From contig DASPTE010000074.1 of the NCBI GenBank assembly GCA_035623585.1, positions 1-53,207 of the forward strand: a stretch of DNA of 53,207 nt, in the 5' to 3' direction. Position numbers and translations under genes: made by a program. Position 1 is the stretch's first letter. Each line of letters opens with the position of its first letter. Below the pieces are notes generated by a model that worked only from the letters and a program-made list of their open reading frames with translations, had not been told where the DNA came from and ran no database searches. The DNA comes from Steroidobacteraceae bacterium. GTDB lineage: Bacteria > Pseudomonadota > Gammaproteobacteria > Steroidobacterales > Steroidobacteraceae. Positions 10,265-53,049 of the stretch are shown one piece after another.

Positions 10265-10966
10265 CTAGCCGCGCGCCGGGACCGCAAGACCTCTCGCGAC
10301 CGCGGGTCGCGCAAGAAACGCATCGAGCGCGCGTGTCACATGGGGGAAATCTCTGATGCCGACGAGCTCGCCGGCCGCGTAGAAGCCGATGAGATTGCGC
10401 ACCCAGGGAAAGATCGCCATGTCGGTGATCGTGTACGTCTCACCCATCATCCAGCTGCGTGTCTCAAGACGCGCGTTCAGCACCTCGAGCAGGCGTCTCG
10501 ACTCCGCGACGTAGCGATCGCGCGGGCGCTTGTCCTCGTAGTCGCGGCCGGCGAACTTATGGAAGAAGCCGATCTGGCCAAACATCGGACCAATCCCGCC
10601 CATCTGGAACATGAGCCACTCGATGGTCTCGTAGCGCCCGGCCGCGTCGGCTGGCAGGAACCTGCCGGTCTTCTCCGCAAGATAGATGAGGATCGCGCCG
10701 GATTCGAAAAGCGGCAGCGGCAACCCGCCCGGGCCGTTCGGATCAAGGATGGCGGGGATCTTGCCGTAGGGATTGAGCGAGCGAAACTCCGCTGAGCGCT
10801 GCTCGTTCCTTTCGAAGCTGACGAGGTGCGGCTCGTAGGGGAGGCCGGTCTCTTCCAGCATGATGGAGACTTTGACGCCGTTTGGTGTCGGCAGTGAGTA
10901 GAGCTGCAGCCGCTCGGGATGCCGCGGCGGCCACTTCCGGGTGATCGGGAACTGCGCGAGATTCAT
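10265..10966 (-). CDS. glutathione S-transferase (Nu-class, YfcG/YghU-like)
   Basis: LQLYSLPTPNGVKVSIMLEE...NPYGKIPAILDP...ESGAILIYLAEK pattern. Start trimmed to MNLAQFP. Confidence 0.8.
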   Translation of the reverse strand: MNLAQFPITRKWPPRHPERLQLYSLPTPNGVKVSIMLEETGLPYEPHLVSFERNEQRSAEFRSLNPYGKIPAILDPNGPGGLPLPLFESGAILIYLAEKTGRFLPADAAGRYETIEWLMFQMGGIGPMFGQIGFFHKFAGRDYEDKRPRDRYVAESRRLLEVLNARLETRSWMMGETYTITDMAIFPWVRNLIGFYAAGELVGIRDFPHVTRALDAFLARPAVARGLAVPARG

Positions 10967-11008
10967 GGGGCTCAGGATAGCAGCGAGCACCGCGGGCTTG
11001 ACAGATAA

Positions 11009-11024
11009 GTAAGTAATCACTTAC
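11009..11024. promoter_or_regulatory. 6-4-6 palindrome GTAAGT-AATC-ACTTAC, candidate ArsR-family operator next to a TTGACA -35 box (10998..11003)
   Basis: Perfect inverted arms read directly, lying between the divergent GST and arsR-family genes, 9 nt upstream of the arsR ATG. Confidence 0.3.
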
Positions 11025-11826: not shown

Positions 11827-11849
11827 AAAGCGGAAGGAGCATGAAAGCC

Positions 11850-12512
11850 ATGAAGAACGAGTTCGTGATTCACGCGATTCCCGGAAGTCCCTTCAGCCGC
11901 TCGGTGCTCGTCGCGCTCGAGGAGAAGGGCGCGCGCTATCGCATCGCGGCCGTGACTCCGGGGTCGCTGCGCATGCCCGAACACCTGAGCCTCCATCCCT
12001 TCGGCCGGGTGCCGATCCTCGATCACGGCGAGTTTAGGCTCTATGAGACGCAGGCGATCCTGCGTTACATCGACCGGGTGCTCGCGGAACCCGCGCTCAC
12101 GCCGACCGATGCGCAAGCGGCCGCGCGCATGGATCAGCTGATGAACATCAACGACTGGTATCTCTTCCATGGCGTGAGCAACGTCATCGTGTTTCAACGC
12201 ATCGTGGGTCCGCGGGTCCTCGGTCTCACCCCGGATGAGGCTGCCATCGCCGCGGCGCTGCCCAGGGCGCGGGTGGTGTTCGATGTGCTCGCGGGGCAGC
12301 TCGGCTCGCAGCCCTTCCTCGTCGGCGACCACCTCACGCTCGCCGACATCCTGATCGCACCCGAGCTCGATATGTTCCGCGAGACGCCCGAGTGGGAGTC
12401 ACTCACCCGCTCGCAGGCGAACCTGCGCAACTGGATCGAGCGGATGGCAGCGCGTCCGAGCTTCGCGGCGACGACCTGGGAACGAGTCAGCGCAATGGCC
12501 AAGGCTGCCTGA
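11850..12512 (+). CDS. glutathione S-transferase
   Basis: GST N-terminal and C-terminal domain pattern (IPGSPFSRSVLVALEEKG, HPFGRVPILDHGEFRLYETQAILRYI). AAGGAG lies 10 nt upstream of the ATG at 11850; the alternative ATG is at 11841. Confidence 0.8.
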   Translation: MKNEFVIHAIPGSPFSRSVLVALEEKGARYRIAAVTPGSLRMPEHLSLHPFGRVPILDHGEFRLYETQAILRYIDRVLAEPALTPTDAQAAARMDQLMNINDWYLFHGVSNVIVFQRIVGPRVLGLTPDEAAIAAALPRARVVFDVLAGQLGSQPFLVGDHLTLADILIAPELDMFRETPEWESLTRSQANLRNWIERMAARPSFAATTWERVSAMAKAA

Positions 12513-15805: not shown

Positions 15806-16402
15806 ATGATTTCTTCGCAAATGCTTTTGCGTTACGGGTTCTGGATCTCGAGCATCCTCTGGCTGGGTGGCTGCGGCTCTGCGCCCCCATTGGGCGGCGC
15901 TCTGCCGGCCGGCACCGTGACGCTCGCTGGCGCGCCCCCTTACGCTTTCGACTGCGACGCCCCACCGGGCAAGTACCGCAACGCGACGGTTGCGCTTTCC
16001 GCCAAGGAAGTGAGAGTGAAAGGGTTTGTGCAATTCCTGAGCTGGCAGGGCGACTCGACGTTTGGTCCATGGGCGACGATCGTTTTCGCAGGTCCCGCTC
16101 AGCATAGCGGCGTCGGACTGCAGGCCTTTGTGCTGCCGAACGCACCCGACTCGATTCAGTTTGCGGTCGAATCGGGATTGGCGCAGGAGGGGTACGCGCG
16201 TGCGGTGTTTGCCACGACGCCACTGAGCGCTACGCTGACACCGTTTGAACTCTCGGTTGCCGGACCTGGCAACGTGAATGTCGGCATCGGCTCGGTTACG
16301 AAGACAGTGTCGGTCGCCCCCCTCGAATTGACGCGCGTCAATCTGTCCTGCTCGACCGCGCACGTGCGCTTTTCCGGCGTGACCGTGACCGCGCTGCCGT
16401 AG
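15806..16402 (+). CDS. hypothetical lipoprotein
   Basis: Lipobox LWLGGC after a hydrophobic leader and high GC3. The 3' end overlaps the convergent decarboxylase gene by 65 nt. Confidence 0.5.
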   Translation: MISSQMLLRYGFWISSILWLGGCGSAPPLGGALPAGTVTLAGAPPYAFDCDAPPGKYRNATVALSAKEVRVKGFVQFLSWQGDSTFGPWATIVFAGPAQHSGVGLQAFVLPNAPDSIQFAVESGLAQEGYARAVFATTPLSATLTPFELSVAGPGNVNVGIGSVTKTVSVAPLELTRVNLSCSTAHVRFSGVTVTALP

Positions 16403-17816
16403 GAGCCCGCCGCGCACCCGCGATGCGCTCGATTCTGCTGAGAACGTCCTCGACGTCTTGGATCCGCGTGCGCGGATTCATCACCGTAAGGCGCAGCACC
16501 CTGCGACCTTCGAGCACCGTCGAGCTGATGTACCCGTAGCCGCTCTCGTTGAGCTCTTCCTTGATATTCCAATGGATCCGGTCCGAATCCCTGCCACGTG
16601 CCCGACGCAGCCGAAAGCACAGTATGTTGGAGTGCGGTTCATGCAGGGGTAGCAGAATCCGCGAGCGCGCACAGTAGCGAAACGCCGCCTCGCAGACGCG
16701 GCAGGTGTGGCTCACCAGCGCATCCCACACTCGAGCTCCGTACACCTGCCACACGAGCCAGATCTTCAAGGCATCAAATCGCTGCGAACAGGCGATCGTG
16801 AGTTGACCGATGTCGGGCCAGCGCCTGCGCGCGCCGAACAAATAAGGCGCCCGCTCCGCTAACGGCGTAGCCAACCGCGAGCCATTCCGCACCAGCACCC
16901 CACCGGCGGTGAGCGGCATGAACATCATCTTGTGCGGATCGAATACCAGCGAGTCCGTCGAACCGATGCCCCGAACCCGCCTTTGCAATCGGCGGCTGAA
17001 GGCGAGTGCGGCACCGTGAGCGGCATCGACGTGCAGCCAGGCGCCCTCGCGCGTGGCCAGCCGCCGCAGCTCTTCAAGCCGGTCAAAACTGCCGGTCGAG
17101 GTGGAGCCCGCCGAGCCGACCAAGATGAACTTGCGAAATCCCGCTTTGCGCGCCGCCGCGAACGCTTCGGGGATCCGAGCGACGTCGGTGCAGAACTCGC
17201 GATCCACCGGGACGCGAAATACCGCATCCGGCGACAACCCGAGAATCGCAGCCGCGCGCGCGATCGAGTAGTGCGTCTGGGCGCCGACAATGACCGCGAT
17301 CCGCGCAGTTGCCGTGCGTGCGCGGTCCCGATCCAGAGCCTCGCGCGCCGCAAGCAGCGCCGTTAGGTTTCCGAACGCTCCGCCGGGAACCAAGGTGCCT
17401 TCGGCTGAGCGCGGGTAACCGAAGAGGCTCCTGAACCGAACCATCAGTTGCCGGTCGATCGCGGTCGCGATCGGCGACATTTCCCACACGGCCAGACTCT
17501 GATTCAACGCTGCAACCACCGACTCGATCAGCGCCGCCATCGGAATGGGGGCCGCCACCTGCTGCGCGATGTAACGCGGATGCGCAAGGCGCAGGCTCGA
17601 TCGCTGTATCTGCCGCACCAGGGCCAGCGGACTTCGCCCCCGCGCGCCCAGGATCCGCCCGGCGATTGCGCTTGAGCCGCGCCGCCGCACGGCCCCTTCC
17701 TGCACGAGCAGTGCGTCGGTGGCGATTTGCGCGAACTGCCGTGCGAGTCTCCCGACGGTAGTTCGATCCCAGAGTTCGCGGATGACCGCTGCTTCGGACG
17801 AGGGTGTGCGCTTCAT
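16338..17816 (-). CDS. pyridoxal-phosphate-dependent decarboxylase (group II, aspartate aminotransferase fold)
   Basis: DPHKM PLP-lysine motif, HVDAAHG, GGAFGNLTAL. Start trimmed to MKRTPSS because the upstream part of the track ORF runs through the tRNA gene. Confidence 0.8.
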   Translation of the reverse strand: MKRTPSSEAAVIRELWDRTTVGRLARQFAQIATDALLVQEGAVRRRGSSAIAGRILGARGRSPLALVRQIQRSSLRLAHPRYIAQQVAAPIPMAALIESVVAALNQSLAVWEMSPIATAIDRQLMVRFRSLFGYPRSAEGTLVPGGAFGNLTALLAAREALDRDRARTATARIAVIVGAQTHYSIARAAAILGLSPDAVFRVPVDREFCTDVARIPEAFAAARKAGFRKFILVGSAGSTSTGSFDRLEELRRLATREGAWLHVDAAHGAALAFSRRLQRRVRGIGSTDSLVFDPHKMMFMPLTAGGVLVRNGSRLATPLAERAPYLFGARRRWPDIGQLTIACSQRFDALKIWLVWQVYGARVWDALVSHTCRVCEAAFRYCARSRILLPLHEPHSNILCFRLRRARGRDSDRIHWNIKEELNESGYGYISSTVLEGRRVLRLTVMNPRTRIQDVEDVLSRIERIAGARRAPTAARSRSRRKSARARSSRTD

Positions 17817-17895
17817 GTTGTTGTGCGTGCGTCTGAGAGGTGGTGCAAGCAAAAGTGCTACGGGCCACGCGCCCGAGCGACCCCGTCGGTTGGTA

Positions 17896-18210
17896 TGGGC
17901 CCGGTAGGATTCGAACCTACGACCAAGGGATTCACTTAACCCCGGTGTTTCCACCGGGAGTGGACTATCTCTTCACCCGTGCACACGCCGGTGCATGTGG
18001 GTGCGGGATACTCGAAGCCTGTCATCAAGGGCGCTCAAGCCCTCAGGTAGTCTCTGCACCTTCCGCCGGTGTACCGGCGGCTCGGCTCAGGGTTGCCATG
18101 GGATCGCCCGCCCGAAGGTTTCCCTGAATTCATCCCGTCCACTTCGCGCGTTTCCGCGCGAAGGCACCTTGTCGATGAGTCCCCTGCACTAACCGCTGTG
18201 CTACAGGCCC
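17896..18210 (-). tRNA. tRNA with CAU anticodon (most like tRNA-Ile2, lysidine type), interrupted in the anticodon loop by a group I intron
   Basis: Exon 1 (18210->18175) is GGGCCTGTAGCACAGCGGTTAGTGCAGGGGACTCAT. Exon 2 (17932->17896) is AATCCCTTGGTCGTAGGTTCGAATCCTACCGGGCCCA. Joined, they give a 73-nt cloverleaf in which all four stems pair, with loop CU-CAU-AA. It closely resembles E. coli ileX as I remember it. Confidence 0.85.
17933..18174 (-). ncRNA. group I self-splicing intron (IC3-like, Azoarcus tRNA-Ile type), 242 nt, no ORF
   Basis: Starts CGACAAG-GUG (the GUG guide can pair with exon CAU, giving U-G at the splice site) and ends in G (omega-G). Has three GAAA-capped hairpins. Conserved blocks GUGCCUU, GAAACCU, AUGGCAAC.C.GAGCC and GAAGGUG.AGAGACUA match my recollection of the Azoarcus intron. 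Confidence 0.8.
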
Positions 18211-18369
18211 ATACGCACGCGATTCTAGCAGCCGCTCGAGTGCTGCGGTCGCGCGTTCCGCGGACGATGGTCCCTCTTGCCATCGGCACCAGTGCCGCTA
18301 GCATGGCCCTCCCGACACGCGAGAGCCGGCGTCGGTCATGCACAAAACACCCCGGAGAAGGAGAATCGG

Positions 18370-18978
18370 ATGAAGCTCTATTATCTGACCGGTGCCTGTT
18401 CGCTAGCTTCGAACATTGCGCTGCGCGAAGCGGGACTCAAATTCGAGCTCGTAAAGGTGGACCTCAAGACCAAGAAAGCGAGCGATGGGCTCGATTTTCT
18501 CGAAGTGAACCCCAAGGGCTATGTCCCTGCCCTCACGCTCGATAGTGGCGAGACGCTGACCGAAAACGTCGCGGTGCTGCAGTACGTTGCCGATCGCAAC
18601 CCCGCAGCCAAACTCGCGCCCGCCGCGGGCACCATGGAGCGCTACCGCCTTATCGAGTGGCTGAGCTTCATCAACTCCGAAATACACAAGAATTTCTCGC
18701 CGCTCTTTCGCGCCGACGCGCCCGAGGACATGAAGAACTTCGTGCGCACCAACCTCGCCAACCGACTCAACTACCTCGAGAGCGCGCTCGGGACGAAGAG
18801 CTACCTCATGGGCGAGCAGTTCACCATCGCCGATCCTTACCTCTTCACGGTGCTCGGCTGGGGCAAGCATTTGGGCGTCGACATCGGCAAGTGGCCAAAC
18901 CTGCAGCGCCTCTGCGACCGCGTCGGGGCGCGGCCGCACGTCATCGAGGCGTTGAAGTCTGAGGGTCTGCTGAAATAA
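18370..18978 (+). CDS. glutathione S-transferase (GstA/beta-class-like)
   Basis: MKLYYLTGACSLASNIALREAGL... with the typical beta-class catalytic Cys. GGAGAAGGAG RBS upstream of the ATG at 18370. Confidence 0.85.
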   Translation: MKLYYLTGACSLASNIALREAGLKFELVKVDLKTKKASDGLDFLEVNPKGYVPALTLDSGETLTENVAVLQYVADRNPAAKLAPAAGTMERYRLIEWLSFINSEIHKNFSPLFRADAPEDMKNFVRTNLANRLNYLESALGTKSYLMGEQFTIADPYLFTVLGWGKHLGVDIGKWPNLQRLCDRVGARPHVIEALKSEGLLK

Positions 18979-34154: not shown

Positions 34155-34331
34155 TCGCGCGCCAGCGCGATCAGGGGTCACGCGGTCGGGGGAGGTTTCA
34201 GGGATCTGACTGTCTTGAAGGCAGCAGGTACCCGGTCAGGCAGCGCGGCTCGCTGAGCTCGTAGCGCTTTGATCGGTATTCCCTGTAAATCCGGCATGGC
34301 AACGAGTGCATTCGGAGCGCCGCGGATTGAA

Positions 34332-36479
34332 ATGAATACGGTCGTCAAGATTGATCCCAAAGACATCGACGCGATTCCGTTCCAGGAAGCCTCGCTCGAC
34401 ATCTGGGACAAGAAATATCGGCTGACTGCGAAGGACGGCACGCCCATCGACAAGACGATGGACGATACCTACAAGCGCGTCGCCCGAGCGCTCGCCGAGG
34501 TCGAGAGCGAGGACGTGCGCGAGAGCTGGACCGAGCGTTTTCTCTGGGCGCTGCGGCGCGGCGCGATTCCCGCGGGCCGCGTTACCTCCAACGCCGGAGC
34601 GTTCGAGCACAAGCCGGCAACATCGACGATCAATTGCACGGTCTCGGGCACGATCCATGACTCGATGGACGACATTCTCAAGAAAGTCCACGAGGCGGGA
34701 CTCACGCTGAAGGCGGGATGCGGCATCGGCTATGAGCACTCGACGCTGCGGCCGCGCGGCGCATACGTGTCGGGAGCGGGTGCCTACACGTCCGGCCCGC
34801 TTTCCTTCATGGATATTTTCGACAAGATGTGTTTCACGATCTCGTCTGCGGGTGGAAGGCGCGGGGCGCAGATGGGTACTTTCGATATCGGCCATCCCGA
34901 TGTTATGGAGTTCATCCGCGCCAAGCGCGAGAGCGGGCGTCTGCGACAATTCAATCTCTCGCTCCTCATCACGGATGAGTTTATGCGGGCCGTGCGCGAG
35001 GACCGCGAGTGGAAGCTCGCTTTTCCCGTGTCGCTCAAGGAGTACGAGACCGACAAGCCCGAGCTCGCCGATCAGACAAAGTTCATGTGGCGCGAGTGGC
35101 CGGTGCACGACGGCTACGTCGTCAATGACGACGGCCTCGTCGCTTGCAGGATCTACAAAACTCTGCCGGCGCGGCGCATGTGGGACGTCATCATGACGTC
35201 CACCTATGACTTCGCCGAGCCCGGATTCATTCTCATCGACCGCGTCAATGAGATGAACAACAACTGGTGGTGCGAGAACATTCGCGCGACGAACCCCTGC
35301 GGCGAACAAAGTCTTCCGCCCTACGGCTCATGTTTGCTCGGGTCCATCAACCTAACACGTTTCGTAAAACATCCGTTCACGGATTTCGCGGAATTCGACT
35401 GGTCGGAGTACCGCGAGGTCGTGAAGGTGTTCACGCGCATGCTCGACAATGTCGTCGAGATAAATGGACTTCCACTCGCGCAGCAGCGCGAGGAGATCCT
35501 GCGCAAGCGCCGTCATGGCATGGGATACCTCGGGCTCGGCAGCACGATGACGCTGCTCAAGATGAAGTACGGTTCGCCCGAAGCGGTGCAGTTCACCGAG
35601 GACGTGACGCGCGAGATGGCGGTCGCGGGCTGGGAGGCCGCTCTCGAGCTCGCGCGCGAGAAGGGTCCGGCACCGATCATGAACGAGGAGTTCACGGTTA
35701 CCAGGGAAATGCTGCGCAAGCGCCCGGAGATGGCGCGCGATGGCTGGAAGGCGGGCGTGAAGATCGCAGGCAGGCTCCTGCACGCCAAGTACAGCCGCTA
35801 CATGCAGCGCATCGCGCAGGTCGCACCGCAACTCGTGCACGAGCTCGCCGAGACCGGCGCGCGCTTCACGCACCACACCTCGATCGCGCCCACAGGCACG
35901 ATCTCGCTTTCGCTCGCCAACAATGCCTCGAACGGCATCGAGCCCTCGTTCGCGCATCATTACTTCCGCAACGTGATCCGGGAGGGAAAGAAAACCAAGG
36001 AAAAGATCGACGTCTATTCCTTCGAGCTACTCGCCTACCGCGAGCTGGTCAATCTAGAGGCCAAACCGGGAGCCACCACCGATGCAGAGAGACTGCCCGA
36101 GTACTTCATCGCTTCCGAAGACATCACTCCCAAGGAGCATGTCGAAGTGCAGGCTGCGGCCCAAAAGTGGGTCGATTCATCGATTTCTAAGACGGCGAAC
36201 GTGCCTACGGATTTCCCGTACGCGAAATTCAAAGACATCTATCTGTACGCATATGAGCAGGGGCTGAAGGGCTGCACGACCTTCCGCTTCAACCCGGAGG
36301 CGTTCCAGGGCGTGCTCGTGAAGGAACAGGATCTCAAGAACACGATCTACAAGTTCACCCTCGAAGACGGCTCGGTAGTCGAGGTGCGCGGGGACGAGGA
36401 GATCGAGTACGACGGTGAGGTGCACACCGCCGCCAATCTTTACGACGCGATGCGCGAGGGCTACTACGGCCGCTTCTGA
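34332..36479 (+). CDS. nrdJ: adenosylcobalamin-dependent ribonucleoside-diphosphate reductase, large N-terminal fragment (NrdJa)
   Basis: Class II RNR core motifs (TNPCGEQSLPPYGSCLLGS, SIAPTGTISL, ISKTANVP). Start ambiguous (ATG 34296 or 34332). Confidence 0.9.
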   Translation: MNTVVKIDPKDIDAIPFQEASLDIWDKKYRLTAKDGTPIDKTMDDTYKRVARALAEVESEDVRESWTERFLWALRRGAIPAGRVTSNAGAFEHKPATSTINCTVSGTIHDSMDDILKKVHEAGLTLKAGCGIGYEHSTLRPRGAYVSGAGAYTSGPLSFMDIFDKMCFTISSAGGRRGAQMGTFDIGHPDVMEFIRAKRESGRLRQFNLSLLITDEFMRAVREDREWKLAFPVSLKEYETDKPELADQTKFMWREWPVHDGYVVNDDGLVACRIYKTLPARRMWDVIMTSTYDFAEPGFILIDRVNEMNNNWWCENIRATNPCGEQSLPPYGSCLLGSINLTRFVKHPFTDFAEFDWSEYREVVKVFTRMLDNVVEINGLPLAQQREEILRKRRHGMGYLGLGSTMTLLKMKYGSPEAVQFTEDVTREMAVAGWEAALELAREKGPAPIMNEEFTVTREMLRKRPEMARDGWKAGVKIAGRLLHAKYSRYMQRIAQVAPQLVHELAETGARFTHHTSIAPTGTISLSLANNASNGIEPSFAHHYFRNVIREGKKTKEKIDVYSFELLAYRELVNLEAKPGATTDAERLPEYFIASEDITPKEHVEVQAAAQKWVDSSISKTANVPTDFPYAKFKDIYLYAYEQGLKGCTTFRFNPEAFQGVLVKEQDLKNTIYKFTLEDGSVVEVRGDEEIEYDGEVHTAANLYDAMREGYYGRF

Positions 36480-36508
36480 GCGCGGGCAGTTAAAGCAGGA
36501 AAACCAAC

Positions 36509-37246
36509 ATGACCAAGATCGACCGCAAGATCGTCAAGTATCAGGTGCAGAAGCCTGAAGAGAAGCCCGCCGCGGCGGCGGCGCAAGCTCCCGCGGCCCC
36601 GCAGGGCGGGGAGCCCGAGATCGTGCGCGACAAGAATGGCGGCACCGCCAAAGTAATCCGCATGCACGAGAAGCTCGAGCGTCCGGAAATGCTGGTCGGC
36701 TCGACCTACAAGATCAAGACGCCGATCTCCGATCACGCCATGTACGTGACGATCAACGACATCGTGCTGAACGAGGGTACCGAGTACGAGCAGCGCCGGC
36801 CGTTCGAGATCTTCATCAACTCGAAGAATCTCGATCACTTCCAGTGGATCGTGGCGCTCACGCGCATCATCTCCGCGGTGTTCCGCAAGGGGGGCGATGT
36901 CACCTTCCTCGTCGATGAGCTCAAGGCGGTGTTCGACCCGCGCGGCGGCTATTGGCAGCCGGGCGGCAAGTTCATGCCATCGATCATCGCCGAGCTCGGC
37001 TACGTCATCGAGAAACACCTGCAGGCGATCGGCTTGATCCGCAAGAGCCCCCTCGATCCCCACCAGCAAAAGTTCGTCGACCAGAAGCGCGCCGAGTACG
37101 AGGCGCGCGCCAAGCAGACCGACGCCTTCGCCAAGCCGCACTTCCCCGAAGGCGCCCAGCTCTGCGGCCGCTGCAGCACGGCGGCGGTCGTCATGATGGA
37201 CGGCTGCATGACGTGCCTGAACTGCGGTGATTCGAAGTGTGGTTAA
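36509..37246 (+). CDS. class II ribonucleotide reductase C-terminal fragment (NrdJb)
   Basis: Lies 29 nt after nrdJa. Continues the RNR C-terminal region (YKIKTP...MYVTIND, PFEIFINSK) and ends in a Cys-rich tail CGRCSTAAVVMMDGCMTCLNCGDSKC. The split architecture is known from Pseudomonas aeruginosa nrdJab. Confidence 0.8.
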   Translation: MTKIDRKIVKYQVQKPEEKPAAAAAQAPAAPQGGEPEIVRDKNGGTAKVIRMHEKLERPEMLVGSTYKIKTPISDHAMYVTINDIVLNEGTEYEQRRPFEIFINSKNLDHFQWIVALTRIISAVFRKGGDVTFLVDELKAVFDPRGGYWQPGGKFMPSIIAELGYVIEKHLQAIGLIRKSPLDPHQQKFVDQKRAEYEARAKQTDAFAKPHFPEGAQLCGRCSTAAVVMMDGCMTCLNCGDSKCG

Positions 37247-49684: not shown

Positions 49685-50725
49685 ATGGCCGTTGATATCG
49701 CGCAACTGCTCGCTTTCGCCGTCAAGAACAACGCCTCCGACCTGCACCTCTCGTCGGGCGTGCCGCCGATGATCCGCGTGGACGGGGACATGAAGCGCAT
49801 CAACATGCCGGCGCTCTCCCACAAGGAAGTGCACGCCATGGTGTACGACATCATGAACGACAAGCAGCGCAAGGCGTACGAAGAATTCTACGAAACCGAT
49901 TTCTCGTTCGAGATTCCAAAGCTGGCGCGCTTCCGCGTCAACGCCTTCAACCAGAACCGCGGCGCCGGGGCGGTGTTCCGCAACATCCCCTCGCTCATTC
50001 TCTCACTCGATGACCTGAACGCGCCGAAGATCTTCCGCGACCTGTGCATGCTGCCGCGCGGCCTCGTGCTGGTCACGGGGCCTACCGGCTCGGGCAAGTC
50101 CACCACCCTCGCCGGCATGGTCAATCACTGTAACGACAACCGGCCCGATCACATCATCACGATCGAGGACCCGATCGAGTTCGTGCACGAATCCAAGCGC
50201 TGCCTCGTCAATCAGCGCGAGGTGCACCGCGATACGCTCGGCTTCAGCGAGGCGCTGCGTTCGGCGCTGCGCGAAGACCCGGACGTGATCCTGGTCGGCG
50301 AAATGCGCGATCTCGAGACCATCCGCCTCGCGCTCACCGCGGCGGAGACCGGGCACCTGGTGTTCGGCACCCTGCACACGAGTTCCGCGGCCAAGACCAT
50401 CGACCGCATCGTGGACGTCTTCCCGGGCGAGGAGAAGGACATGGTGCGCTCGATGCTCTCCGAATCGCTGCGCGCGGTGATCTCGCAGACGCTGCTGAAG
50501 AAGATCGGCGGCGGGCGGCTCGCGGCGCATGAGATCATGATCGGCAGCCCCGCCATCCGTAACCTGATCCGCGAGGGCAAGATCGCGCAGATGTACTCCG
50601 CCATCCAGACCGGCGGCGCACAGGGCATGCAGACGCTCGATCAATGCCTCTCGGAGCTCATGGCCAAGGGGCAGGTGAGCAAGGAAGAGGCGCGCTACAA
50701 GGCGCAGAACAAGGACGCGTTGTAA
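49685..50725 (+). CDS. pilT: type IV pilus retraction ATPase PilT
   Basis: Walker A GPTGSGKST, DVILVGEMRD, TGHLVFGTLHT and the PilT-specific AIRNLIREGK motif. Confidence 0.95.
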   Translation: MAVDIAQLLAFAVKNNASDLHLSSGVPPMIRVDGDMKRINMPALSHKEVHAMVYDIMNDKQRKAYEEFYETDFSFEIPKLARFRVNAFNQNRGAGAVFRNIPSLILSLDDLNAPKIFRDLCMLPRGLVLVTGPTGSGKSTTLAGMVNHCNDNRPDHIITIEDPIEFVHESKRCLVNQREVHRDTLGFSEALRSALREDPDVILVGEMRDLETIRLALTAAETGHLVFGTLHTSSAAKTIDRIVDVFPGEEKDMVRSMLSESLRAVISQTLLKKIGGGRLAAHEIMIGSPAIRNLIREGKIAQMYSAIQTGGAQGMQTLDQCLSELMAKGQVSKEEARYKAQNKDAL

Positions 50726-50746
50726 GAGGGGGTTTGGGGACGGCTC

Positions 50747-51901
50747 ATGGATCGCGACCAAGCAATCAAGCTGATGCAGGACCTGCTGCGGCGGGTGACC
50801 GAGAAGAAGGCCTCGGATCTTTTCATCACCGCCGGCTTCCCGCCGGCCATCAAGATCGACGGCGAGATCCGCCCGCAGAGCGAGCGCGCACTCACCGCCG
50901 AACAGGCCGCAACCCTCGTGCGCGCCATCATGAACGACCGGCAGACGAAGGAGTTCGATGCCACCAAGGAGGCGAACTTCGCGATCGCCCCGCAGGGCAT
51001 CGGCCGCTTCCGCGTGAGCGCCTTCGTGCAGCAGGCGGCGGTCGGCTGCGTCATCCGCCTGATCAACGCCAAGATCCCGACCTTCGAGGAGCTCGATCTG
51101 CCGCCGGTGCTCAAGGAGGTCGTGCTCTCGAAGCGCGGCCTCGTGATCCTCGTCGGCGGCACGGGCTCGGGCAAGTCGACGACGCTCGCGACCATGGTCG
51201 GCTACCGCAACGAGAAGACCCGCGGCCACATCGTCACCATCGAGGATCCCGTCGAGTACGTGCACACCCACAAGGGCTGCGTCATCACGCACCGCGAAGT
51301 GGGCGTCGACACGGAGTCCTGGCACAACGCGCTCAAGAACACCCTCCGTCAGGCGCCCGATGTCATCCTGATCGGTGAGATACGCGACCGCGAGACCATG
51401 GAGTACGGCATCCAGTTCTCGGAGACCGGGCACCTGGTGCTCGCGACGCTGCACGCGAACAACGCCAACCAGGCGCTCGATCGCATCGTCAACTTCTTCC
51501 CCGACGAGCGGCGCACGCAGCTGCTCATGGACCTCTCGCTCAACATCCGCGGGCTGATCTCCCAGCGCCTGATTCCACGCGAGGCGGGTGGCGGGCGCAT
51601 CGCGGCGATGGAGATCATGCTGAACTCGCCCCTCATTCAGGACCTGATCTTCAAGGGCGAGGTGGCCAAGATCAAAGACATCATGGGGCGCTCGACGCGC
51701 CTTGGAATGCGCACCTTCGACCAGGCGCTGTACGAGCTCTACGAGACCGGCTTCATTTCCTACGAGGATGCGCTGCGCAACGCCGATTCCAAGAATGAGC
51801 TGCGCCTGCGCATCAAGCTCGAGAGCAAGCGCGAGGTCAAGAACATCGACGAGGGCGGCCAGCTCGCGCTCGAGGAAACAGAGCAGGGTCGTAGCCTTTG
51901 A
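50747..51901 (+). CDS. pilU: PilT/PilU family type IVa pilus ATPase (PilU-like)
   Basis: GGTGSGKST, DVILIGEIRD and TGHLVLATLHA motifs. It lacks the AIRNLIRE motif (LIQDLIFKGE instead). Confidence 0.85.
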   Translation: MDRDQAIKLMQDLLRRVTEKKASDLFITAGFPPAIKIDGEIRPQSERALTAEQAATLVRAIMNDRQTKEFDATKEANFAIAPQGIGRFRVSAFVQQAAVGCVIRLINAKIPTFEELDLPPVLKEVVLSKRGLVILVGGTGSGKSTTLATMVGYRNEKTRGHIVTIEDPVEYVHTHKGCVITHREVGVDTESWHNALKNTLRQAPDVILIGEIRDRETMEYGIQFSETGHLVLATLHANNANQALDRIVNFFPDERRTQLLMDLSLNIRGLISQRLIPREAGGGRIAAMEIMLNSPLIQDLIFKGEVAKIKDIMGRSTRLGMRTFDQALYELYETGFISYEDALRNADSKNELRLRIKLESKREVKNIDEGGQLALEETEQGRSL

Positions 51902-53049
51902 GCACGGCGGCGGACAAAGTCGCGGAGGACAATCCGCAGCCGTCGGCTCTCGCCGATGCGGTGACCGAGGCGGTGACCTCCAAGCACCCGACCCTCAATA
52001 CCAAGCCGCTCTTCAAGCTGATGGTGGAGAAGAAGGCCTCCGACCTCTTCTTCACCGCGAATGCCCCGATCAAGATCAAGATCGAGGGGCAGATCATGCC
52101 TGTCAACAAGCAGATCCTGACTCCCGAGACCGTGCGCCAGACCGCCTTTGCGCTCATGTCGCCCCCGCAGCGCGAGTACTTCCAGCGCGAGTGGGAGCTC
52201 GATTTCGCGATCTCGGAGCCCGGGCTCGGGCGCTTTCGCTGCAACGTCTTCATGCAGCGCGGCTTCCCCGCCATGGTGCTGCGCTACATCACCGCCGACA
52301 TGCCGCGGCTCGATCTCCTCGGCCTGCCGCAGGTCACGCTCGATCTCACGATGCTCAAGCGCGGGCTGATACTCATCGTGGGTTCTACGGGTTCGGGTAA
52401 ATCCACCTCGCTCGCGGCGATGATCAACCATCGCAACGAGAACGCCGCCGACCACATCGTCACCATCGAGGACCCGATCGAGTTCCTGCACACCAACAAG
52501 CGCTCGATCATCAATCAGCGCGAGGTGGGGCTCGACACCAAGAGCTACGCGCGCGCGCTGCGCGGGGTGGTGCGCGCGGCGCCCGATGTGATCCTGATCG
52601 GCGAGGTGCGCGACAAGGACGGCATGGAGGCGGCGATCCACTTAGGCGGCACCGGGCATCTCGTGCTCGCGACCATGCACGCCAACAACTCCGCGGAGTC
52701 GCTCGATCGCATCATCAACATGTTTCCGAAAGAGCAGCACAGCCAGATACTGCTCGACCTCTCGCAGTACCTGCGCGCCATCATGTCGCAGCGGCTCGTC
52801 ATGGGTAAGGATCGCCGGCGCGTCGCCGCCGTGGAAGTGCTGATCAACACCCCGCACATCTCGACCCTCATCAAGAAGGGCGACGTCACCGGCTGCAAGG
52901 AGGCGATCGAGGCCTCGGGCGAGCGCGGCATCCAGAGCTTCGACCTCGCGCTCTTTCAGCTCTACAAGGCGGGCCGCATCAACATGGACGAAGCCCTCAC
53001 CCACGCCGACTCGCGCGCGAACCTCGAGGCCAAGATCAACTTCGGCTGA
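51898..53049 (+). CDS. second PilU-like PilT-family ATPase (third paralogue in tandem)
   Basis: GSTGSGKST, DVILIGEVRD and TGHLVLATMHA motifs. The TTG start overlaps the upstream stop (TTGA). The AIRNLIRE position reads HISTLIKKGD. Confidence 0.8.
   Translation: MSTAADKVAEDNPQPSALADAVTEAVTSKHPTLNTKPLFKLMVEKKASDLFFTANAPIKIKIEGQIMPVNKQILTPETVRQTAFALMSPPQREYFQREWELDFAISEPGLGRFRCNVFMQRGFPAMVLRYITADMPRLDLLGLPQVTLDLTMLKRGLILIVGSTGSGKSTSLAAMINHRNENAADHIVTIEDPIEFLHTNKRSIINQREVGLDTKSYARALRGVVRAAPDVILIGEVRDKDGMEAAIHLGGTGHLVLATMHANNSAESLDRIINMFPKEQHSQILLDLSQYLRAIMSQRLVMGKDRRRVAAVEVLINTPHISTLIKKGDVTGCKEAIEASGERGIQSFDLALFQLYKAGRINMDEALTHADSRANLEAKINFG

Follow-up and report, generated by a model that had tools for sequence, protein, structure and literature searches.

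We analysed a 53,207-nt stretch of contig DASPTE010000074.1 from a Steroidobacteraceae bacterium (the window), in which tsaD, dnaG, and rpoD are followed by an opposite-strand GST gene and then by a tRNA(CAU) gene in two pieces. The pieces lie on the minus strand 242 nt apart, and ARAGORN folds them, once joined, into a 73-nt tRNA(CAU) with exactly the coordinates and stems of the cloverleaf drawn in the original prediction. The features of the locus, in the order in which the tRNA is read, are the following:

18222..18227, minus strand: -10-like hexamer TAGAAT, read from the sequence, 11 nt upstream of the mature tRNA 5' end
18210..18175, minus strand: 5' exon of the tRNA(CAU), 36 nt, called by ARAGORN on the spliced sequence and covered by the alignment of the intronless allele L214 to 18216..18175; it holds the acceptor 5' strand, the D arm, the anticodon stem 5' strand, and the loop bases C-U-C-A-U
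18174..17933, minus strand: group I intron, 242 nt, no ORF, from RF00028 and the fold over 64 homologues; omega-G is 17933
18165..18168, minus strand: internal guide sequence GGUG, which pairs with exon C-A-U and the first intron base C as P1
18142..18163, minus strand: P2 hairpin, 9 bp, with GAAA tetraloop L2
18131..18137, minus strand: P3 5' strand CGGGAUG, partner 18010..18004
18086..18128, minus strand: P4-J4/5-P5-P4' domain, with P4 UUCAGGG (18128..18122) paired to CCCUGAG (18092..18086)
18063..18080, minus strand: P6a hairpin CCGCCGG-UACA-CCGGCGG
18048..18052, minus strand: P7 5' strand GACUA of the guanosine-binding helix, in a pseudoknot with 17967..17963
18018..18047, minus strand: extra P7.1-type hairpin, 30 nt, which follows the P7 5' strand and precedes the P3 3' strand
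18004..18010, minus strand: P3 3' strand UAUCCCG, paired with the P3 5' strand
17974..18003, minus strand: P8, base helix CACCC/GGGUG and a distal stem-loop of variable length, from covariation
17963..17967, minus strand: P7 3' strand UAGUC, within the conserved J8/7-P7 block GAAGAGAUAGUCC
17941..17958, minus strand: P9 hairpin CCCGGUG-GAAA-CACCGGG
17932..17896, minus strand: 3' exon of the tRNA(CAU), 37 nt, called by ARAGORN and covered by the alignment of L214 to 17932..17893; it holds A37-A38, the anticodon stem 3' strand, the variable loop, the T arm, the acceptor 3' strand, and discriminator A73, with CCA unencoded
16338..17816, minus strand: PLP-dependent decarboxylase gene, downstream of the tRNA and outside the element, from a Pfam Pyridoxal_deC match to residues 139–450 of a 538-aa ORF

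The intronless metagenomic allele L214 matches the spliced product at 100% identity, and its alignment to the window breaks at 18175|17932. This break point fixes the exon/intron boundaries exactly, and the insert sits directly after the anticodon, as had been proposed. The junction reads CUCAU|...G|AA, i.e. it falls after the fifth anticodon-loop nucleotide (36/37), and the 5' exon closes with U36, which contributes the U to the U-G wobble of the 5' splice site. Williams defines the Ile2.5Ug class by insertion after anticodon-loop nucleotide 5, U at -1, and G at omega, and the window intron has this position and both splice bases. The opening CGACAAG-GUG and the closing G that had been described for the insert are likewise read in the sequence. 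The last intron base is G in 78 of the 81 CAU-class loci that we parsed, and ARAGORN calls a tRNA(CAU) for all 78 spliced family members with omega-G.

Run with intron detection, as the original prediction had advised, ARAGORN does not return this gene but a tRNA-Gln(CUG) whose 242-nt intron is placed at 35/36, i.e. displaced 2 nt upstream. However, the last two intron bases differ among orthologous loci (UG or CG, G always final) whose exon bodies are identical. Since two bases of the supposed CUG anticodon vary in this way, they are intronic; otherwise, the orthologues would alternate between CUG and CCG anticodons on one otherwise identical tRNA body. The displaced register also puts a C before the 5' splice site, which destroys the invariant CAUC/GGUG P1, and it disagrees with the intronless allele, which reads CUCAUAA. 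Such mis-registration by ARAGORN is reported by Williams, who settles the register from scores of the -1 and omega bases. The variable last intron bases and the L214 junction together refute the Gln(CUG) call as a 2-nt register error, and we give it practically no weight.

The tRNA(CAU) is most likely tRNA-Ile2, the decoder of the rare AUA isoleucine codon, because it combines an ileX-type position downstream of rpoD with C4-G69 and C5-G68 and a match of 57/73 to ileX, a likeness that had been noticed from the exons, including both pairs. The evidence behind this call is the gene position and a set of determinants that were worked out in Escherichia coli, where ileX encodes the lysidine tRNA tRNA-Ile2. 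The E. coli gene order is rpsU-dnaG-rpoD-(opposite-strand gene)-ileX, annotated tRNA-Ile(CAU), so that, as in the window, one opposite-strand gene separates dnaG-rpoD from a tRNA with the CAU anticodon, the same two acceptor pairs, and a near-identical anticodon arm. By contrast, ileX is intronless and encodes its CCA, whereas the window gene is split and does not: the bases after the discriminator A read UACCA, out of register as had been stated, and CCA is absent throughout the subclade to which the window belongs. The first acceptor pair of bacterial initiator tRNAs is mismatched, whereas G1-C72 is paired in the spliced tRNA. Among the family tRNAs, 51 have a GCUC and 17 a GCAC D stem, with a matching 3' strand, AGAGC or AGUGC.

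Were the host an elongator tRNA-Met(CAU) instead, it is AUG decoding that the intron would disrupt, and lysidine would play no part. In favour of this reading, ARAGORN names every CAU tRNA "Met", and the TilS determinants applied here, C4-G69 and C5-G68, derive from E. coli work. Nevertheless, both pairs occur in 68/68 family tRNAs parsed, identity is lower to tRNA-Met (49/73) and tRNA-fMet (46/73) than to ileX, and the anticodon arm is almost that of ileX. Many loci, with either class of intron, keep the linkage to rpoD, and the published class at this insertion site is Ile2.5Ug. On this evidence, we regard an elongator as very unlikely and retain tRNA-Ile2. No TilS is found among the 26 ORFs of the 53-kb window scanned with Pfam.

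The split gene probably has its own promoter, for which the TAGAAT hexamer is the candidate -10 element. A comparison of upstream regions of relatives reveals TAGAAT or TACAAT at equal distance in L029, L036, L120, L001, L031, L062, and L023, as well as in the intronless L214. On the minus strand, a simple promoter and terminator scan detected no full sigma-70 promoter for the tRNA.

The RF00028 (Intron_gpI) search by which the group I assignment was to be judged gives a match at 18187..17941 on the minus strand that covers model positions 1–253 of 253 without truncation, and its 64.6 bits (E = 3.6e-14) exceed the gathering score of 50 bits. The intron has an MFE z-score of -3.04. Across 64 related introns, 97.4% of the cells of 61 modelled pairs are paired and 37 of the 61 pairs show compensatory changes, while slid alignments reach 38–43% paired and none of 500 shuffles attains the observed values; the model omits distal P5 and distal P8, where length variation makes the alignment unreliable. 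The window agrees with the family consensus at every invariant position.

The window retains all core helices intact, and P3, P4, P6a, and P8 covary. Specifically, P3 is paired in 99.1% of cells with two-sided changes at 4 of 7 pairs, P4 in 100% with compensatory changes at 3 of 7, and P6a in at least 99% with such changes at 7 of 7, while two P6 pairs never vary. P8 shows A-U replaced by G-C and C-G by U-A in relatives (98.4% of cells paired; two-sided changes at 2 of 5 pairs). Compensatory changes affect all 9 pairs of P2 and all 7 of P9; L9 is GAAA in 64/64 sequences, and L2 varies within GNRA types among relatives. P1 comprises the pairs C-G, A-U, U-G, and C-G, all invariant in the 64 sequences apart from one gap in the fourth, and the U-G wobble that had been expected from pairing of the guide GUG with exon CAU is present in 64/64. 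The P7 strands GACUA and UAGUC are complementary and equally invariant (64/64). As such, covariation neither backs nor contradicts P1 or P7. Three GAAA-capped hairpins had been listed for this intron, of which P2 and P9 hold, but the inner GAAA is the conserved J4/5 segment (inside 18126..18115), located in GGGAAACC between the P4 and P5 strands.

The same data bear on whether the locus could be a decaying relic, i.e. a splicing-dead intron in a tRNA whose task is covered by an unsplit Ile2 gene outside the window. Many natural alleles have no intron, which is therefore dispensable; only 53 kb of the genome is in view; and the subclade has neither an encoded CCA nor canonical 11-nt receptors. 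Against decay, however, stand the intact core helices and the agreement with the consensus, together with changes that preserve pairing in P3 (U-A for U-G, G-U for G-C) and in the D stem. The -10-like element is also conserved, and the arrangement is equally intact in the nearest relatives (~80% DNA identity). A relic thus has only a slim chance of being the right description, and we continue with an intact split gene.

With 242 nt, the intron is 37 nt longer than the 205-nt intron of Azoarcus, as had been estimated. The added structure is not in the 3' third where it had been placed, but at intron positions 128–157, shortly beyond the middle. It consists of an outer stem CCUG/CAGG, an inner stem GGGC/GCCC, a 1x7 internal loop (A / UUGAUGA), and an apical loop UUGAGC. 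The hairpin is present in every gamma-class intron compared and missing from Azoarcus-like introns, and its inner stem covaries, with one pair being GC in 39, AU in 14, and CG in 11 sequences and another GC in 49 and AU in 14. The outer stem is GCGG/CCGC in L071, and the loop consensus is conserved in the family alignment. Judged from these alignments, the extra length is a hairpin common to the whole gamma-class lineage and not a peculiarity of the window copy. Its internal loop also occurs as UUAAUGA, UUCAUAA, and UUAAUCA in the family. We considered a kink-turn or box C/D-like motif (CUGA ... UGAUGA) and rejected it, as the required G-A positions are unconserved across the family.

The closest well-studied comparison is the intron of Azoarcus sp. 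BH72 / A. olearius (IC3, 205 nt, Ile2.5Ug), which self-splices efficiently in vitro (PMC13168695) and whose sequence we took from the gpI.sto supplement of Williams. It shares with the window the host tRNA, the insertion point, the -1 U and omega G, a guide GUG that pairs with CAU, GAAA-capped P2 and P9, and the absence of an ORF, and Azoarcus-like loci likewise adjoin rpoD. Four blocks had been named as common to both introns. All four (GUGCCUU, AAUUC-N4-AAACCU, AUGGCAAC.C.GAGCC, and GAAGGUG.AGAGACUA) are present in the window and in A. olearius, but the second had been given one base too long, and AAUUC-NNNN-AAACCU fits both. Identity is ~67% over ~198 aligned columns, and segment lengths are equal except between the P7 strands (79 nt in the window vs 37 nt) and in P6 (23 vs 17–27 nt).

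The two introns differ in their periphery and in several signatures. Where an IC3 intron built as in Azoarcus runs from P7 to P3' without a peripheral helix, the window has the 30-nt covarying hairpin and a linker. P1 is CAUC/GGUG in the window and CAUAU/AUGUG in Azoarcus, and the P3' and J8/7 signatures are AGYRUCCCG and GAGAUAGUCC as opposed to GACGGCACC and GGCAUAGUCC. In Azoarcus, 11-nt receptors CCUAAG/UAUGG in P5 and P8 stabilise the ribozyme, whereas the window has the GAAA loops L2 and L9 that would dock on them but no CCUAAG. This motif occurs in 1/64 gamma-class introns, and twice in each of L084, L093, and L105. Given the missing canonical receptors, folding may rely on other contacts or on a protein.

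A similar helix between P7 and P3' is already annotated in the published seed alignment for introns in other tRNA settings, i.e. the Williams seeds Mga42.Leu.1Ug, Dba165.Lys.2Ug, Pam37.Asn.4Ug, and Mba55.Phe.2Ug. For example, the P7.1 helix of Mga42 (ccug-a-...-uaauaa-cagg) is the motif of the window. These introns share with the window an AGCG(U/C)CC P3' strand, an (A/U)GAGAUAGUCC block, and GUG/AUG-AAUUCA at the P3-P4 junction, and their crude global identity to it is 71–77%. Their host tRNAs and anticodon-loop positions are different (Leu.1, Lys.2, Asn.4, and Phe.2), and some of these introns have a second hairpin (P7.2) or an internal loop built otherwise (UGA / AAUAA). Introns of cyanobacterial and plastid tRNA-Leu(UAA) and of Agrobacterium tRNA-Arg(CCU), also IC3, resemble the window in their compact core and anticodon-loop site, and examples of both are matched by the core pattern used for the window class; they differ in host tRNA and insertion position, and the P7-P3' hairpin is absent from the examples retrieved.

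By these signatures and crude identities, the window intron is at least as close to the P7.1-bearing introns of other tRNA sites as to Azoarcus, although its P1-P2 region is closer to Azoarcus. One tentative reading, which we find possible but rather doubtful, is that the Ile2.5 site hosts two lineages: a compact Azoarcus type in Betaproteobacteria, and a P7.1-bearing type in Gammaproteobacteria with its nearest relatives in Leu.1, Lys.2, Asn.4, and Phe.2. If so, either one nucleotide was invaded independently or its intron replaced, or a peripheral domain was gained or lost with a rewiring of tetraloop-receptor contacts. With rewiring, the conserved 1x7 loop (A / UURAUNA beside a CC/GG step) would replace the lost P8 receptor for L2.

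The core reading, an ileX-like tRNA(CAU) with an Azoarcus-related group I intron after the anticodon, is supported by sequence comparison on every test run. We consider it highly probable that the locus is a chromosomal, ileX-positioned tRNA-Ile2(CAU) gene split between bases 36 and 37 by an ORF-less 242-nt group I intron. In the predicted precursor, exon C-A-U and the first intron base would pair with the guide GGUG, forming P1 with its U-G wobble at the 5' splice site, and the intron would fold into P3-P8 and P4-P6 domains with a P7 pseudoknot, GNRA-capped P2 and P9, and the extra peripheral hairpin in a presumably stabilising role. If the intron is catalytically active, exogenous guanosine would attack after U36, and the terminal G 17933 would then fill the G-site, with exon ligation yielding the 73-nt tRNA. 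The CCA end would be added post-transcriptionally, and C34 would receive lysidine or a related modification so that AUA is read as isoleucine. AUA decoding may therefore depend on both self-splicing and lysidine.

Ile2.5Ug is one of four classical settings (Williams 2020), and the window intron, by its sequence features, belongs to this Azoarcus-type class, which is already known and not rare. Bacterial tRNA group I introns had been described as limited to a few lineages, a view that is outdated: at least 120 loci from many bacterial lineages match our core pattern scan. Within Proteobacteria, the class has a much wider distribution than one would gather from the classical literature, and cultured relatives with it include Rhodanobacter, Dyella, and Lysobacter daejeonensis. 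The locus is a well-supported added example that leaves the current understanding of group I introns and AUA decoding unchanged. The gammaproteobacterial branch, with its conserved extra hairpin and without the Azoarcus tetraloop receptors, offers a natural comparison for ribozyme-folding studies.

Two smaller features of the locus concern its flanks and its annotation. The exon flanks GUAU/AUAC, which had been said to lengthen the acceptor helix by 4 bp, are present in the sequence, but the closest relatives do not have them; the extension is thus probably due to chance, and we reject it as a processing signal.

In annotation, this seemingly essential tRNA is lost in three ways. Default ARAGORN reports no tRNA anywhere in the 53-kb window, which reflects a limitation of the tool and is not evidence for absence; intron mode assigns the wrong anticodon; and an ORF call runs across the 3' exon. 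The 538-aa ORF that had been said to hide the tRNA (16338..17954), with LGRRFESYRAH over the T arm, is confirmed by translation, and an in-frame ATG at 17816 indicates that the mechanical ORF extends too far. A genome annotated in this way would appear to be without a decoder for AUA, a codon that occurs once in rpoD and twice in dnaG of the window.

On the minus strand, the window carries a tRNA(CAU) gene split by a group I intron. The original prediction placed the exon pair and its 242-nt insert correctly, and its interpretation is supported by the analyses below. The parts of the gene are:

18210..18175, minus strand, 36 nt: tRNA 5' exon
18174..17933, minus strand, 242 nt: group I intron; U36 precedes the 5' splice site and G17933 is omega-G
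17932..17896, minus strand, 37 nt: tRNA 3' exon

When the exons are joined, ARAGORN returns a tRNA with anticodon CAU and the cloverleaf stems that had been claimed. A scan of all 53 kb against Rfam 15 at gathering thresholds gave a single match, RF00028 (group I intron; 18187..17941, minus strand), with 64.6 bits vs. a threshold of 50 (E = 3.6e-14) and coverage of model positions 1–253 of 253. The intron contains no ORF. The gene is a clear case of an annotation blind spot: ARAGORN at default settings finds zero tRNAs in the whole window, and with introns allowed it reports the same 242-nt insert displaced by 2 nt and calls tRNA-Gln(CUG). As had been noticed, a 538-aa ORF also masks the T arm. 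Pfam places a decarboxylase domain at residues 139–450 of this ORF, which has an in-frame ATG at 17816; the part across the T arm is therefore an over-extension beyond the decarboxylase.

Searching GTDB representatives (one genome per species) with the core pattern GGCAACNNNGAGCC-N10-40-GGTGNAGAGACT recovered at least 120 loci, almost all of which have an interrupted tRNA according to ARAGORN. Among the matches listed, 81 loci have a 5' exon ending in CUCAU, with identical exon bodies throughout (...GGGGACUCAU and AAUCCCUUGG...). The two bases that ARAGORN puts in the "anticodon" are mostly UG, or CG in Rhodanobacter, Dyella, and Lysobacter. Because they vary between loci and always end in G, these bases must close the intron at its 3' end, leaving CAU as the anticodon; the tRNA-Gln(CUG) reading was ruled out, as its supposed anticodon bases vary on constant exon bodies. 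A second scan, with the exact spliced junction as query against metagenome contigs, found at least 120 uninterrupted alleles. One of these, on metagenome contig locus L214, matches the spliced tRNA of the window at 100% identity (minus strand, tRNA start at position 189 once the locus is reverse-complemented; CCA not encoded). BLAST aligns L214 to the window in two pieces, 18216..18175 and 17932..17893, which sets the intron at 18174..17933, between U36 and the 3' exon, with G17933 as omega-G. The DNA flanking the L214 tRNA is unrelated to the window, and thus different organisms share one tRNA sequence, some having the intron and some lacking it. As intronless alleles are common too, the intron is optional across lineages.

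The nearest loci among the matches listed are MAGs labelled Steroidobacteraceae or Gammaproteobacteria (L036, L007, L029, and L120), with ~80% DNA identity to the window across rpoD and dnaG. The gammaproteobacterial branch of split tRNA(CAU) loci, hereafter the gamma class, extends to Woeseiaceae, Rhodanobacter, Dyella, Lysobacter, and others. Further split tRNAs from the core-pattern scan belong to Bdellovibrionales, Acidobacteriota, Eremiobacterota, Paceibacteria, Aminicenantes, and others.

We aligned 64 distinct introns of the CAU class (225–285 nt) and annotated the window row with a group I structure comprising P1, P2, P3, P4, P6/P6a, P7 (pseudoknot), an extra hairpin, P8, and P9. Across 61 pairs and 64 introns, standard pairs fill 97.4% of cells vs. 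38–43% in a slid control with partners moved 1–3 columns; changes on both sides are seen at 37 of the 61 pairs, and none of 500 shuffles matches any observed measure. Every pair of P2, P6a, and P9 covaries, as do several pairs each of P3, P4, and P8. P1 (CAUC/GGUG, including the U-G wobble) and P7 (GACUA/UAGUC) fit the model and are invariant, such that covariation gives no test of them. All modelled pairs are formed by the window's own sequence; P2, P6a, P8, P9, and the inner stem of the extra hairpin also appear in its minimum-free-energy fold (z-score −3.04). The loop capping P9 is GAAA in 64/64 introns, while that of P2 varies among GNRA-type loops; what had been taken for a third GAAA-capped hairpin is really a conserved stretch between P4 and P5, GGGAAACC. 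Of the 64 gamma-class introns, 1 has the canonical CCUAAG receptor, whereas each of the closest compact, Azoarcus-like introns has two copies.

The extra 37 nt originally predicted relative to Azoarcus do reflect added structure, although this is not peculiar to the window: it is a 30-nt hairpin found throughout the gamma class. Compared with Azoarcus-like introns of 202–205 nt from the core-pattern scan, the P7-to-P7 stretch is 79 vs. 37 nt and P6 is 23 vs. 17–27 nt, with all other segments equal in length. Pairwise alignment with these introns leaves a single block gap immediately 3' of AGAGACUA. The added element, between P7 and P3', is:

18047..18018, minus strand, 30 nt: extra hairpin with outer stem CCUG/CAGG, inner stem GGGC/GCCC, apical loop UUGAGC, and an internal loop with a single A on the 5' side and 7 nt (UUGAUGA) on the 3' side

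Among the matches listed, the hairpin is present in every gamma-class relative and in zero Azoarcus-like introns. Its inner stem covaries (GC 39, AU 14, and CG 11 at one pair; GC 49 and AU 14 at another), its outer stem is GCGG/CCGC in one relative (L071), and its loops keep a consensus (internal A / UURAUNA; apical U-N-N-A-G-Y). Along with the annotation blind spot, this conserved hairpin of the gammaproteobacterial branch is what the locus adds to the known class. The hairpin would act as a peripheral stabiliser, and one may speculate that it substitutes for the lost receptor. A second variant, following AGAGACU in four taxonomically scattered loci, differs in its internal loop, which is of the UGA / (A)AUAAG type instead of A / UURAUNA; two hosts are CAU tRNAs (L004, L118), and ARAGORN, with register unadjusted, calls the others (L072, L095) Asn(GUU) and Gln(UUG). 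This variant resembles the Lys.2Ug, Asn.4Ug, and Phe.2Ug seeds of the Williams alignment (bioRxiv 10.1101/2020.01.27.920355).

The intron class itself is already known and widespread. The Williams survey found 5,292 tRNA genes split by group I introns in ~80,000 bacterial genomes, and Ile2.5Ug (tRNA-Ile2, intron after the fifth anticodon-loop nucleotide, U at −1, G at omega) is one of its four classical settings, all of subgroup IC3 (bioRxiv 10.1101/2020.01.27.920355). The window gene fits this setting exactly, and its intron is an Ile2.5Ug member by host and position. The 205-nt Azoarcus olearius intron, taken from the seed alignment of that survey (bioRxiv 10.1101/2020.01.27.920355), has ~67% identity to the window intron and contains 4/4 of the Azoarcus blocks originally listed. 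Its P7.1-type helix and its lack of the 11-nt receptors set the window intron apart from the strict Azoarcus architecture. Helices between P7 and P3' are already annotated in Leu.1Ug, Lys.2Ug, Asn.4Ug, Phe.2Ug, and tmRNA introns (bioRxiv 10.1101/2020.01.27.920355). For example, Mga42.Leu.1Ug reads ccug-a-...-uaauaa-cagg, the motif of the window hairpin. In a crude global alignment, the Leu.1Ug, Lys.2Ug, and Asn.4Ug seeds are 71–77% identical to the window intron, and the AGCG(U/C)CC and GAGAUAGUCC signatures are common to it and the helix-bearing seeds. In Burkholderiaceae tRNA-Leu(UAA) introns (244–299 nt; twelve loci in Burkholderia, Paraburkholderia, and Trinickia), P7 runs directly into P3' with no inserted hairpin.

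Gene order agrees with the predicted resemblance to ileX. E. coli K-12 has rpsU-dnaG-rpoD, one opposite-strand gene, and ileX, annotated as tRNA-Ile(CAU); the window has tsaD, dnaG, rpoD, an opposite-strand glutathione S-transferase gene, and the split tRNA. Many loci, of both intron classes, show the same linkage to rpoD. The spliced tRNA shares 57/73 positions with ileX, with near-identical anticodon arms, vs. 49 and 46 with tRNA-Met and tRNA-fMet sequences. C4-G69 and C5-G68, known as E. coli TilS determinants, are present in 68/68 parsed family tRNAs, and the D stem alternates between GCUC and GCAC with matching changes in the 3' strand. An AUA decoder is needed, since rpoD and dnaG of the window contain one and two AUA codons, respectively. 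Pfam identified no tilS among the 26 ORFs scanned in the 53-kb window. We infer that the intron self-splices and that C34 carries lysidine or a related modification.

Of the oddities first reported, the 4-bp GUAU/AUAC acceptor extension is present, and is taken as chance because it is unique to the window; the missing CCA is shared by the window's subclade, while most family members encode it. CCA would be added to the tRNA after transcription. A −10-like hexamer, TAGAAT (18222..18227, minus strand), lies just upstream. In the window, three of the nearest MAGs (L029, L036, L120), four other retrieved loci (L001, L031, L062, L023), and L214, TAGAAT or TACAAT precedes the mature 5' end by 11–12 nt, and is thus kept in intron-bearing and intronless alleles. 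A simple consensus scan gave no full promoter at the tRNA, and no clear −35 element was seen upstream of the hexamer; its conservation points to a dedicated promoter whose leader is just a few nucleotides long.

Three glutathione S-transferase genes lie inside 9 kb (10265..11020, minus; 11841..12512, plus; 18277..18978, plus), one of which lies between rpoD and the tRNA on the opposite strand, where E. coli has mug. At 34269..37246 (plus), an ORF for a ribonucleotide reductase large subunit (736 aa) is immediately followed by a separate 245-aa TSCPD-domain ORF, both in the window's lowest-GC stretch (0.60 vs. ~0.66); the two may together represent a split class II reductase. Three consecutive ORFs at 49685..53049 (plus) all hit the type II/IV secretion ATPase family (T2SSE), suggestive of tandem PilT/PilU-like paralogues.
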